Assembly: GCA_963663865.1 (NCBI GenBank)
Contig: OY760686.1
Location: 2,592,001-2,656,000, forward strand
Direction of reading: 5' to 3'
Length of the DNA: 64,000 bases
Source: Spirochaetota bacterium
GTDB taxonomy: Bacteria > Spirochaetota > UBA4802 > UBA5550
The first letter of the stretch is position 1. Each line of letters starts with the position of its first letter. Shown piece by piece: positions 9,828 through 12,752 of this stretch. Under the pieces are notes generated by a model. The model was not told where the DNA came from and ran no database searches. It was given only the letters and a program-made list of their open reading frames with translations. A program made the translations under genes and the position numbers.

Positions 9828-10160
9828 TTATCTTGACTCATCCACCAGCATTCCAATATAGTCCTGAATGCTTTCAAGAAGCTTAACGGCGTCCTTTGCC
9901 GGAATCTCCCTGACGACCTCGGATGTCTCCGTGTCTATAATCTTCATGATAACGCTGTTAGCCTTGTCGTTATACGTAAAGCTGATCCTGTCATTGTAGC
10001 TTTTTACTGAACGATTCAGCGTCTCGACTACCGCGGCAACATCACCACTGGCTGAAGAATGCTTTCCATCCTCAGAACCGCTATGGTGATGAGCGTTTTC
10101 ATGATGCCCGTTGTAGACCTTAATTCTGTCTACAGTATCCAGTATACCAGTGATATTCAT
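9828..10160 (-). CDS. flaG: Flagellar protein FlaG
   Basis: ISFTYNDKANSVIMKIIDTETSEVVREIP...GMLVDE signature; between flagellin and fliD. Confidence 0.95.
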   Translation of the reverse strand: MNITGILDTVDRIKVYNGHHENAHHHSGSEDGKHSSASGDVAAVVETLNRSVKSYNDRISFTYNDKANSVIMKIIDTETSEVVREIPAKDAVKLLESIQDYIGMLVDESR

Positions 10161-10164
10161 GATG

Positions 10165-10178
10165 CAACCTCCTTGTTG
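10165..10178 (-). promoter_or_regulatory. CsrA-type site overlapping the flaG Shine-Dalgarno
   Basis: CAAC-AAGGAG-GTTG hairpin contains ACAAGGAGGT, matching the ACANGGANGU consensus. Confidence 0.6.
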
Positions 10179-10189
10179 TATCCCTCCTC

Positions 10190-10237
10190 AAAAAAGAAAA
10201 AGATTCCCCTTTCCGCTCTCCCAAGCGGAAAGGGGGA
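10190..10237 (-). terminator. Intrinsic terminator after the second flagellin
   Basis: CCCCTTTCCGCT-TGGGAG-AGCGGAAAGGGG hairpin followed by AATCTTTTTCTTTTTT. Confidence 0.8.
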
Positions 10238-10279
10238 CGGAGCATGCCGCACTGCATGAGCATCTCCCTAAACCGGTCC

Positions 10280-11125
10280 TCATTCCAAAAGCTTCATAAT
10301 AAGCTTTGGCTTAAAATTAGCTTGAGCCAGCATCGCAGTACCAGTCTGAACGAGGATCTGGTCCCTTGTGTACTCAACCATCTGAGCAGCCATGTCCACA
10401 TCACGGACCCTTGAGTCCGCGGCCATCATATTTTCATATGAGAGCGTCAGTGCTGAGATCGCATTCTCCATCCTGTTGTAATAGGCCCCAAGATCTGCCC
10501 TCTGGCGATTTAGTCTCTCAAGAGCTAAATCAACATACCCGATCATTGAGTTTGCCTGTCCAACAGTTGAAATTGACCTCTTACTGTTGTTCTCATCCAG
10601 CAGATTCAAAGCCTGAGCCGAAATAGTACTAATGTACACGCGGATCCTCTGATGACTGTTAGCACCCACGTGAAAGAACATGCTTCCGACCTTGCTGCCT
10701 TTGGCGAAGGTCCCTGTGAGCATCTTCATTCTGTTGAACTCAGCCGATGTGGCGATGCGGTCAATCTCTTCAATCAGCTGGGATACCTCAACCTGAATCT
10801 GCATGCGGTCCGGGTTAGAGTATATTCCGTTTGCGGACTGAATTGAAAGCTGCCTTATCCTTTGAAGCATATCATTAACCTGCTGAAATGACCCCTCCGC
10901 AACCTGGATGAAAGAAAGCCCGTTTTGGGAATTCTTTTCAGCCTGGATCAGGCCGTTGATCTGGGTACGCATCTTTTCAGATACCGCCAGACCAGAAGCA
11001 TCATCTCCAGCCCGGTTAATAGCCTCACCGGAAGCAAGCTTTTCGATTGATTTGTCCATACGTGCCGCCACACTCTGCATCTGTCTGTTAGCGAAAATGG
11101 CGCTCATGTTGTGATTGATTCTCAT
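10280..11125 (-). CDS. flaB: Flagellin (spirochaete FlaB class), downstream copy
   Basis: [46 protein letters not shown]. Confidence 0.97.
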   Translation of the reverse strand: MRINHNMSAIFANRQMQSVAARMDKSIEKLASGEAINRAGDDASGLAVSEKMRTQINGLIQAEKNSQNGLSFIQVAEGSFQQVNDMLQRIRQLSIQSANGIYSNPDRMQIQVEVSQLIEEIDRIATSAEFNRMKMLTGTFAKGSKVGSMFFHVGANSHQRIRVYISTISAQALNLLDENNSKRSISTVGQANSMIGYVDLALERLNRQRADLGAYYNRMENAISALTLSYENMMAADSRVRDVDMAAQMVEYTRDQILVQTGTAMLAQANFKPKLIMKLLE

Positions 11126-11442
11126 AGAAACCCTCCCTTGATTTTTTCTGAACCACCGCTTCTATGATTTTTAAATGGCCCAGGTTTTCATCCGCACCAT
11201 CTTGACGCGGAAGGGACTTGCGAAAGTCCGAAGGTTGTCTCCTTGTAATGCCGCCTGAACTGCCCATAATCCAGACAACACCGGCCCCGGTTTTCCGGCA
11301 GCCGGTGATGCCCTCCCCTGATCATCACAAGCTGCCGGAAATGTCCGGCCTCTGTCCGCTGTAATACAACAGCGGCAGCATTGCTATCTGGGCAGTCACC
11401 GCAAATGGAGGTGAGAGAATCAATCGAGTTTTCAAAGAACCT
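11113..11442 (-). ncRNA. Candidate structured cis-regulatory leader of the downstream flagellin
   Basis: At least five internal stems plus a closing helix pairing 11402-11425 with the SD/start region 11113-11140; boxA at its 5' end. Confidence 0.6.
11428..11442 (-). promoter_or_regulatory. rrn-type boxA (NusB/NusE site)
   Basis: AGGTTCTTTGAAAAC; contains GTTCTTTGAAAAC, the Bacillus-type rRNA boxA. Confidence 0.6.
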
Positions 11443-11474
11443 GCACTAAAGCTTATTCGCAGTTTTCGTTTTCA

Positions 11475-12326
11475 TCAGCCGGCCAGTAGCCTTAAAGCTG
11501 TCTGGTTTTGTATATTAGCCTGGGCGAGCATCGCCGTACCGCTCTGAACAAGAACCTGATTTTTGGTGAAGTCTACCATTTCTTCAGCCATATCAGCATC
11601 TCTTATCCTGGACTCAGCGGCTTGAATGTTCTCAAACGCGGTCATGAGTCCTTTAGCGGTCATATCCAGCCTGTTGTAGTACGCACCGAGGTCTGCTCGC
11701 TGCTTGGAAAGTACCTGCAGGGCATTATCAAGAACTCCAATGGCTTCATTGGCTCCGCCAGGAGAGGAAAGCGAAAGGGATATTCTCCCTGTACCATCTG
11801 AAAACTTGAATGCCTGAGCAGTCATAGTTCCAATGTAAACTCTTTCTCTCTGGTTCTGGTTTGCACCGAGATGGAACCACATACTTGCCTTCGGATTAAT
11901 TTTTGAAAATTCTCCTGTAAGTACCTTGAATCTGTTAAACTCAGCAGTCGAAGCTACCCTGTTGACCTCGTCGACAAGAGCCGAAACCTCAACCTGAATA
12001 AGTTGACGGTCTGTGTTGGAATAAATTCCGTTAGCGGACTGAATTGAGAGTACCCTTATCCTCTGGATAATTGAAGCAGTCTGATTCAGATAGCCTTCAG
12101 CCGTCTGAACAAAAGACATACCGTCTTCGGTATTTCTCGCAGCCTGTCTCAAACCTTGAATCTGAGTCCTCATTTTTTCAGAAACCGCAAGACCGGAAGC
12201 GTCGTCTCCTGCCTTGTTGATTCTTTCGCCTGAAGCGAGCTTTTCCATGCTGCTCTGCACATTCCAGGTCGTAAACTTCAAAGTCCTGTTGGCATTAATT
12301 GCACTCATGTTGTGATTAATTATCAT
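11475..12326 (-). CDS. flaB: Flagellin (spirochaete FlaB class), upstream copy
   Basis: True start [14 protein letters not shown] at 12326 with AAGGAG SD; [18 protein letters not shown]; [10 protein letters not shown]. Confidence 0.97.
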
Positions 12327-12357
12327 TTTACACTCCTTTGTTTCTCTGTTTCTGTGT

Positions 12358-12371
12358 TGGCTTCCTTGCCA
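12358..12371 (-). promoter_or_regulatory. CsrA-binding hairpin in the flagellin leader
   Basis: TGGC-AAGGAA-GCCA, GGA in a hexaloop about 20 nt upstream of the SD, the typical flagellin CsrA arrangement. Confidence 0.7.
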
Positions 12372-12494
12372 GTATGGTCGAGGGCATAACCACATTTTTC
12401 AGCAGGTTGGGCAGTGCCCGGTTCCAGGCTTGTATCTGGGCTCATACAAACTTGCAACCTCGACTACACTCCCCGGACAGCAACTGATGAAAAC

Positions 12495-12508
12495 GTTTTC
12501 AAAGATCC
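12495..12508 (-). promoter_or_regulatory. rrn-type boxA in the leader of the upstream flagellin
   Basis: GGATCTTTGAAAAC, 7 nt after an AGCAGGGA-GTAA-TCCCTGCT GNRA hairpin (12516-12535). Confidence 0.6.
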
Positions 12509-12539
12509 GCGAATAAGCAGGGATTACTCCCTGCTCGAA

Positions 12540-12567
12540 ATGTCGTCACCTCTGGCCGTCAGGTTTA
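12540..12567 (-). promoter_or_regulatory. Putative sigma28 (FliA) promoter of the flagellin operon
   Basis: TAAA-N16-GACGACAT vs consensus TAAA-N15/16-GCCGATAA; predicted start falls at the 5' GNRA hairpin. Confidence 0.6.
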
Positions 12568-12752
12568 GCTCTATTATTGACAGTATAGCCCATTCTACAT
12601 TGTATAATGGATATTATGACGTATTTATGGCTTGTTTTGGCTATTTTTTAGCTTTTTTATGTTTTTTGATGTTTTTTGATGTTTTCCCGCATTTTTTTAT
12701 AAAAATGGGGGTGAATAAGGCGACAATAGCTACAACTGTTTATTGCTGTCGC

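Follow-up and report, generated by a model that had tools for sequence, protein, structure and literature searches.

A conserved long-range RNA helix with an rRNA-operon boxA motif brackets a flagellin mRNA in Spirochaetota

We analysed a stretch of 64,000 nucleotides (nt) of the genome of a Spirochaetota bacterium (contig OY760686.1, positions 2,592,001 to 2,656,000; hereafter, the window), in which the mRNA of a FlaB-type flagellin gene is bracketed by a long-range RNA helix that we call the stalk. The 5' strand of the stalk lies in the untranslated leader and frames a boxA motif with the same letters as the boxA of the rRNA (rrn) operons of this genome; its 3' strand lies at the stop codon, and a second boxA copy follows it. 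Comparison of 52 loci shows that the stalk is a conserved, covarying and mRNA-strand-specific long-range RNA helix. By analogy with rrn operons, we lean slightly towards reading the whole as a pre-rRNA-like leader-trailer stalk, served by boxA and the Nus proteins, on a flagellin operon mRNA. The flagellin coding sequence (CDS) spans 12326-11475 (-) and encodes 283 amino acids (aa), with Pfam scores of 132 bits for Flagellin_N and 84 bits for Flagellin_C. Coordinates refer to the minus strand of the window unless stated otherwise. The stalk and the two boxA copies are laid out as follows, in the order of the transcript:

12518-12507 (-): stalk arm 1a, GCTTATTCGCGG, 5' strand of helix 1, with its partner at 11462-11451; a single A separates it from boxA1
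12505-12495 (-): boxA1, TCTTTGAAAAC, same letters as the boxA of the rrn leaders of this genome
12494-12482 (-): stalk arm 2a, GTTTTCATCAGTT, 5' strand of helix 2, with its partner at 11480-11468
11480-11468 (-): stalk arm 2b, GGCTGATGAAAAC, which contains the final sense codon (GGC) and the stop codon TGA (11477-11475)
11467-11463 (-): GAAAA linker between arms 2b and 1b
11462-11451 (-): stalk arm 1b, CTGCGAATAAGC, 3' strand of helix 1
11438-11428 (-): boxA2, TCTTTGAAAAC, 12 nt past the 3' arm; with its flanks, it has 14 nt (GTTCTTTGAAAACT) in common with the rrn leader

Helix 1 consists of 12 pairs with one G.U and helix 2 of 13 pairs with two U.G, that is, a total of 25 pairs, three of them G.U. 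These pair counts and G.U positions on the mRNA strand agree with the two collinear helices of 12 and 13 base pairs described in the original prediction, a first reading made from the letters of the window alone. A repeat scan of the window picks up the core of helix 2 as an exact 12-nt match, and when the 53-nt 5' segment was compared with both strands of the 64 kb, cut into 12786 windows of 70 nt each, its true partner was the top match (-46.0 kcal/mol, its own opposite strand set aside). The case that this single genome makes against chance is only moderate, and the comparison across genomes is the decisive evidence on this point. A local hairpin formed by the palindrome GAAAACGTTTTC (2 genome copies) was also considered as a competing structure and rejected, since it is private to this genome and not long enough to be a competitor.

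To compare genomes, we searched 40 relatives, placed among uncultured Spirochaetota or 'Leptospirales' metagenome-assembled genomes (MAGs), for their best-matching flagellin. This yielded 29 loci besides the window's own, with orthologs of the first flagellin at 78-88% identity in the 29 relatives; one locus (L024), on a contig that ends 175 nt upstream of the gene, was dropped, leaving 29 usable loci including the window's own. A larger set of 52 loci adds records from a second collection, after removal of eight identical to existing loci. In a MAFFT alignment of the 29 full RNAs, the CDS and both boxA copies line up, but the variable arms in the 3' untranslated region (UTR) do not, and we therefore used alignment-free tests, in which the RNAduplex energy of each locus's own 5' and 3' segments was compared with that of randomly reassigned partners. 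In the 29 loci, cognate pairing was stronger than permuted pairing for helix 1 (-10.6 versus -6.2 kcal/mol; 0/20000 permutations reached the cognate value), for helix 2 (-14.9 versus -10.7 kcal/mol; 0/5000) and for the whole stalk (-31.6 versus -19.6 kcal/mol; 0/5000). For the whole stalk in the 52 unique loci, the values were -31.2 versus -19.9 kcal/mol (standard deviation 0.64), with none of 10000 permutations reaching the cognate mean, and the cognate partner ranked best of 52 in 15 loci and within the top 3 in 32. The arms themselves are highly variable: the two flanks of boxA1 comprise 26 and 25 distinct 12-mers in 29 loci, each complementary to the 3' region of its own genome. A position-wise table of pairs, built from the best duplex of each sequence, illustrates this diversity and is not a measure of significance. 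The covariation expected from the original prediction is thus found in relatives, whose arms differ and yet pair better with their cognate partners.

Free folding and a control with paralogs point in the same direction. In unconstrained folding of the ~1.1-kb RNAs, the first 71 nt formed 15 or more pairs with the tail in 25/29 loci, a number that dropped to 7/29 when non-cognate tails were swapped in. A paralogous group of flagellin genes with a boxA in the leader (21 loci) showed no cognate 5'-3' pairing in the same kind of test (-26.15 versus -25.86, with 1734/5000 permutations reaching the cognate value). The sense stalk is more stable than its antisense counterpart in 46/52 loci (means of -31.2 and -25.65 kcal/mol; Wilcoxon p ~3e-9), and since pairing is better on the mRNA strand, it is one of RNA and not a DNA repeat. 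The original prediction had argued the same from the G.U pairs of this single locus, and the argument extends to the whole stalk in relatives; for helix 1 alone, the asymmetry between sense and antisense was not significant (17 versus 12 loci, p=0.27).

The consensus anatomy that emerges is a stalk of ~25-35 pairs, with a median of 32 predicted pairs. In most loci, only 0-1 nt separate boxA1 from the 5' arm of helix 1. The TCTTT half of boxA1 usually pairs with an AAAGA-like run (17-24/29 loci), while its GAAA is mostly unpaired (paired in 8-12/29 loci), and helix 2 begins directly after boxA1, with positions +11 to +19 paired in 25-27/29 loci. The segment looped out between the helices had been taken for a boxA; its identity with the rrn boxA is borne out, but the loop is smaller than thought, most relatives bulging only GAAA(AC) and pairing the TCTTT half. 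On the 3' side, helix 2 extends into the CDS or the stop codon in 50/52 loci, and a median distance of 10 nt (48 loci) separates the end of the 3' arm of helix 1 from boxA2, which comes after it. Judged by sequence, the stalk is a shortened copy of the leader-trailer helix of the host's own rrn operons, in which boxA is paired too.

The genome carries two tandem rrn operons at its beginning (genome 1-11200, minus strand). TCTTTGAAAAC occurs in the leaders of both (genome 5004 and 10459), ~96 nt before the 16S gene, and the leaders carry GTTCTTTGAAAACTG, which pairs almost fully with TACTACTCAGTTTTGAGAGAAC located just past the 16S gene. Since the stretch of the rrn leader with boxA pairs with the 16S trailer, the native boxA is part of the 16S leader-trailer helix. 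The same motif, place (~91-96 nt before 16S) and pairing were found in two other genera (4 operons, in 2 of the 5 genomes searched; the remaining three assemblies showed no 16S). The rrn leader also has a GAGGGA...ATCCCTT hairpin 22 nt before boxA. Two further boxA-like sequences were observed in these operons: TCTTTTAAAAC, located after the 16S gene and two tRNA-like stretches, before the 23S side (genome ~3059 and ~8514), and a weaker one, TTTTTGATAAC, further up the leader.

The 11-mer TCTTTGAAAAC has 12 copies in the genome versus ~2.2 expected from base composition. Six of these exact copies lie outside genes: two in the rrn leaders, three at flagellin loci (boxA1, boxA2 and a copy at genome 143755) and one that is probably fortuitous; boxA1, which is overlapped by a long stop-free frame, had failed a crude coding filter. 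The probable chance copy, at genome 1505599 on the plus strand (locus L120, 2100-2110), is in an AT-rich intergenic region and was discarded; it lies upstream of a TTGACA/TATATA promoter-like pair and of a protease-like protein of 649 aa with an HExxH motif. The motif noticed in the flagellin leader is thus the native rrn boxA, and it is commoner than base composition predicts. As for its number, the boxA1 of the original prediction was confirmed while the second copy, boxA2, had been missed.

Both copies are kept in the orthologous loci. boxA1 is exact in 21/29 and has at most one mismatch in 26/29, 170-267 nt before the ATG, and its motif is kept while both of its flanks vary. boxA2, 13-56 nt after the stop codon, is exact in 15 of the 29 loci; 6 loci have a single mismatch and 8 have two. 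According to the main text of a survey, the published consensus, GYTCTTTAANA, is gamma-proteobacterial (PMC5725501). Counting the flanking G at -2, boxA2 (GTTCTTTGAAA) agrees with it at 10/11 positions and boxA1 (GATCTTTGAAA) at 9/11, and the host rrn boxA carries the same A-to-G difference. Wherever this G at -2 is paired, it does not vary between loci.

The third flagellin-linked copy (genome 143755, plus strand) is located between two paralogs (142892-143731 and 143916-144758), 24 nt past the stop codon of one and 160 nt before the ATG of the next. The paralogous group to which the latter gene belongs (21 loci) keeps the leader boxA in relatives. In the paralog loci L073-L098, an (A)GGGAATAC motif was also observed ~40-60 nt past the stop codon, shortly before an intrinsic terminator. 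Among 10 loci from records titled Leptospira or Turneriella, a single one, a MAG locus of the paralogous group (L084), has a boxA with at most one mismatch; the other 9 showed none in the searched windows, a result that limits only the known range of the element as their flagellins may not be orthologs.

The other features of the transcript, including those of a second flagellin gene, are the following:

12567-12540 (-): σ28-like promoter, predicted from TAAA (12567-12564), a 16-nt spacer and GACGACAT (12547-12540), with the predicted start at ~12535
12534-12517 (-): 5'-terminal hairpin GCAGGGA-GUAA-UCCCUGC, which precedes boxA in the manner of a boxB and shares its last two bases with arm 1
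12481-12327 (-): remaining leader, ~155 nt of the ~180-nt untranslated leader
11426-11402 (-): anti-TIR (TIR, translation initiation region), complementary to the Shine-Dalgarno sequence and AUG-AGA-AUC of the next flagellin, about 11141-11113
11125-10280 (-): CDS of the second flagellin, 281 aa, beginning 313 nt after boxA2
10235-10206 (-): intrinsic-terminator-like hairpin of 13 pairs and a T run, after the second flagellin

A -10-like element, [AGC]CGA[ATC]N, is found 28-39 nt before boxA1 in 27/29 loci, and the full pattern with TAA-N14-19 in 20/29; a stricter σ28 expression matched 11/29 loci, and the looser pattern was used instead. A conserved σ28-like -10 element at a fixed distance is consistent with the earlier proposal that the 5' hairpin sits at a σ28 start. 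In the MAFFT alignment, the stem of this hairpin changes on both sides between genera (GGGA/TCCC, GGAGA/TCTCC, GGAA/TTCC). Further down the leader, a nearly invariant element (12452-12421, minus strand; CTTGTAT-GAGC-CCAG-ATACAAG-C-CTGG) has the potential for an H-type pseudoknot, and in some relatives its first stem has changed on both sides, for example, CTTATAT/ATATAAG. Also nearly invariant in the alignment are a GGCAAGGAAGCC hairpin (12370-12359) and the Shine-Dalgarno sequence CAAAGGAG (12340-12333). A GGA in a hairpin loop together with a GGA at the Shine-Dalgarno sequence is a combination that we take to be a CsrA-site-like pattern. At the level of sequence, the leader has the marks of the CsrA type, namely both GGA sites in a genome that encodes csrA and fliW, which are adjacent (genome 2131805-2132365). 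Also present are fliA, nusB (136.8 bits), rho (720.8 bits) and rnc (253.2 bits). Rfam yielded no family at gathering thresholds over the window, nor at E<=1 over 10100-12700.

In all 26 loci with a second flagellin, the ~25 nt that follow boxA2 and form the anti-TIR are complementary to the Shine-Dalgarno sequence (AGGGAGG) and AUG-AGA-AUC of that gene, which lie 270-446 nt downstream. The predicted duplex ranges from -19 to -36 kcal/mol, and in L027 both sides have changed (GATCCTC/GAGGATC). This looks like a long-range translational lock beside a boxA. We found no terminator-like site between the two flagellin genes, the only strong one being located after the second. Co-transcription of both is plausible since the σ28-like pattern sits before the first gene (27/29 loci) and almost never between the two (1/26). 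A boxA2 and an anti-TIR placed after the stalk point, by analogy, to a two-gene transcript organised like 16S-spacer-23S. Two hairpins were observed in the leader of the second flagellin (11375-11300, minus strand), and also in relatives: GCCGG-acattt-CCGGC and GATGAT-caggggagggc-ATCAC, the latter with GGA in its loop; this leader is probably structured and of the CsrA type. The second flagellin gene is followed by flaG and fliD. Six neighbouring proteins were scanned, of flagellar, TPR-like and phosphonate-binding-like types, and none among them was a recombinase.

How such a transcript might work can be proposed from the rrn operons, on which boxA recruits NusB and NusE and the resulting complex resists Rho, as stated in the available text of PMC12360218. 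Leader-trailer helices flank the rRNAs and are essential for the formation of the 30S subunit, according to the part of PMC10250234 available to us. On the flagellin operon, the σ28 transcript would begin at the 5' hairpin. NusB-NusE at boxA1, together with NusA and NusG, would turn RNA polymerase Rho-resistant, as on rrn operons, and the polymerase would then cross the ~180-nt untranslated leader and a coding region possibly free of ribosomes while CsrA blocks initiation. Because boxA-bound RNA would stay on the polymerase, the 5' arms would be held near the exit channel, and arms 2b and 1b might pair with them on emerging at the stop codon, closing a helix similar to the pre-16S leader-trailer one. 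The closed stalk would pair, and hence protect, both mRNA ends and would be a likely place for processing by RNase III, separating the flagellin mRNA from the downstream part. Some 10 nt past the stalk, boxA2 might reload the complex for the ~310-nt untranslated spacer and also present the anti-TIR for pairing with the start region of the second flagellin. Since ribosomes terminating on the first gene would have to open helix 2, the closed form of the stalk would occur mostly on untranslated mRNA and would mark it.

The original prediction had interpreted this mRNA as one handled like a pre-rRNA. That interpretation is partly supported: the architecture holds, and the Nus and RNase III biochemistry would follow by analogy. 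The full sequence of events, in which the transcript is matured like a pre-rRNA, with Nus at boxA1 closing the helix, RNase III freeing an end-paired mRNA that is stable under CsrA, and boxA2 re-arming the polymerase and delivering a strand against the ribosome-binding site, is a tentative proposal that we consider possible rather than probable. If true, the Nus machinery would be a programmable long-range RNA-folding chaperone for mRNAs, beyond rRNA.

A number of observations weigh against a pre-rRNA-like, Nus-served stalk. In this genome alone, the lead of the true partner is narrow, the next-best windows reaching -45.6 and -44.3 kcal/mol, and for this reason the observation in a single genome would not have convinced us. 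Seven of the 52 loci (L019, L022, L026, L031, L053, L054 and L061) have a stalk that is weak or lacks cognate specificity, their cognate partner being worse than ten non-cognates. The genomes are related and not independent, so that the permutation and Wilcoxon figures overstate significance; close relatives also improve the non-cognate controls, and kinship therefore works against the cognate signal as well. The closed stalk pairs half of boxA1 and might evict NusB/NusE instead of using them. Its helices of 12-13 pairs, broken by a bulge, are shorter than the rrn helix, and RNase III cutting is not predictable from their sequence. Three metatranscriptome runs, searched at 80% likeness, cover mainly conserved coding parts from other organisms, with no coverage at 11376-11459 or 12384-12700. 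Finally, the mRNA boxA elements described in the available text of PMC12360218 (suhB and hisG) promote Rho termination instead of preventing it.

The most serious competitor, which we consider unlikely, is that the locus combines two independent devices, a boxA acting in plain antitermination against Rho on untranslated stretches and a self-forming stalk that serves as a post-transcriptional stabiliser or as a translation-sensitive decay switch, with no rRNA-like processing. That free folding yields the stalk in 25/29 loci indicates that no chaperone is required; the paralogous group keeps a leader boxA without a cognate stalk, so that boxA appears to be usable alone in the flagellin leaders of this clade; and helix 2, by reaching the stop codon or CDS in 50/52 loci, links the stalk to translation. 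However, unrelated devices would not be expected to have arms that abut boxA1 at 0-1 nt with TCTTT inside the helix, as in the host rrn, and the anti-TIR also lies directly beside a boxA. It is improbable, in our view, that boxA acts here as a repressor of the suhB kind, with Nus at boxA1 or boxA2 lowering translation or promoting Rho termination and the stalk or the anti-TIR reinforcing the effect. The only mRNA boxA elements characterised in the available texts of PMC12360218 and PMC5725501 do act in this way, and the segment right after boxA2 would sequester the Shine-Dalgarno sequence and AUG of the second flagellin. Yet neither boxA1 nor boxA2 lies within about 50 nt of a start codon, the distances being 179 and 313 nt as compared with the limit of 50 bp set by the search for suhB-type elements in the main text of PMC5725501, and a 5' hairpin, a leader-trailer helix and a second boxA after the stalk resemble the antiterminating arrangement.

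Still less probable is that the 11-mer is not a Nus site in these organisms but a bulge or internal loop for another RNA-binding protein or for the shape of the stalk, its rrn likeness being convergent or irrelevant. Its differences from the published gamma-proteobacterial consensus (one in boxA2, two in boxA1) and the two mismatches carried by 8/29 boxA2 copies would fit such a role, but the rrn leaders of three genera carry the very same 11-mer, boxA2 has 14 nt in common with the rrn leader, the motif recurs in three separate flagellin contexts, and its placement in a long-range helix is rrn-like. As for a feature of the DNA, such as inverted repeats through which the flagellin gene would invert, or a match by chance, we consider either highly improbable. 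The arms are by nature inverted repeats in the DNA, and within the window the match leads the other candidates by a small margin only. Nevertheless, 26 distinct 12-mers in 29 loci, with compensating changes, rule out that the arms are a conserved site for a recombinase; in 46/52 loci, pairing is better on the mRNA strand; and the permutation tests reject chance. Inversion between the arms, singled out beforehand as an outcome that would contradict RNA pairing, is opposed by the single orientation of the gene relative to the promoter-like element in all 52 loci, by the variability of the arms and by the lack of a recombinase among the six neighbours scanned. A 39.5-kb contig from another sequencing run, possibly the source assembly, is near-identical and collinear.

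boxA and the Nus factors are regarded as serving rRNA, phages and a few repressive mRNAs, and the leader-trailer helix as a device for rRNA maturation. Here, in no fewer than 52 species-level genomes, both jointly surround a highly expressed mRNA that encodes a protein, and what is new is the combination of known parts around an mRNA, the parts themselves being known. In agreement with the earlier impression that nothing of the kind had been described for an mRNA, the accessible literature on boxA with flagellin, Nus, spirochetes or mRNA leader-trailer helices yielded no description of such an element. A boxA survey (PMC5725501) covers gamma-proteobacteria only, and 'flagell' is absent from its main text, the part checked as distinct from its supplementary lists of putative boxA genes. 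If the reading as a pre-rRNA-like stalk is true, the operon would offer a natural mRNA system to test the RNA-looping chaperone role proposed for the rrn antitermination complex, would show how a translationally silenced (CsrA-bound) mRNA escapes Rho termination and decay, and would add a layer to the regulation of spirochete flagellins. Searching for boxA beside one strand of a covarying long-range helix could reveal more such mRNAs.

Several known systems share some of these traits. The boxA located upstream of CRISPR arrays prevents Rho termination and, as proposed here, carries the polymerase through long untranslated RNA, but it has neither a bracketing helix nor a coding region and belongs to another clade. 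In the hok/sok system, the hok mRNA, a plasmid toxin mRNA of ~400 nt, folds back its 5' and 3' parts to control stability and translation, and is thus alike in the pairing of its ends; unlike the flagellin mRNA, it has no boxA, no Nus factors and no rRNA-like architecture. CsrA-FliW controls flagellin mRNAs such as Bacillus hag, Campylobacter flaA and Borrelia flaB, to which our operon is similar in its GGA hairpin, its GGA at the Shine-Dalgarno sequence and its adjacent csrA and fliW. We know of no boxA or leader-trailer stalk in the descriptions of these systems. For Treponema denticola flaB2, a start site 124 nt from the ATG is reported, and the available text mentions no boxA or stalk elements (PMC9481697). 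The boxA of the suhB 5' UTR (Baniulyte et al. 2017, PMC5725501) and the intragenic one of hisG are likewise mRNA boxA elements outside rrn operons and phages; by their available texts, they differ in lying beside the ribosome-binding site or within the gene, in promoting Rho termination and in having no long-range stalk (PMC5725501, PMC12360218). The closest relative is the pre-16S leader-trailer helix with the rrn antitermination complex (NusA/B/E/G, SuhB, S4). The flagellin stalk differs from it in bracketing a translated mRNA with a CsrA-type leader, in being shorter, with GAAA(AC) bulged, and in having a 3' strand that overlaps a stop codon, so that ribosomes must open it; Nus binding and processing would apply here by analogy. 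In both, nevertheless, the boxA sequence and its position in the 5' strand of the helix are alike, the helix brackets an RNA of ~1-1.5 kb, a hairpin precedes boxA, and another boxA-like element comes after the 3' strand; the helix of the flagellin mRNA is, moreover, maintained by compensatory change.

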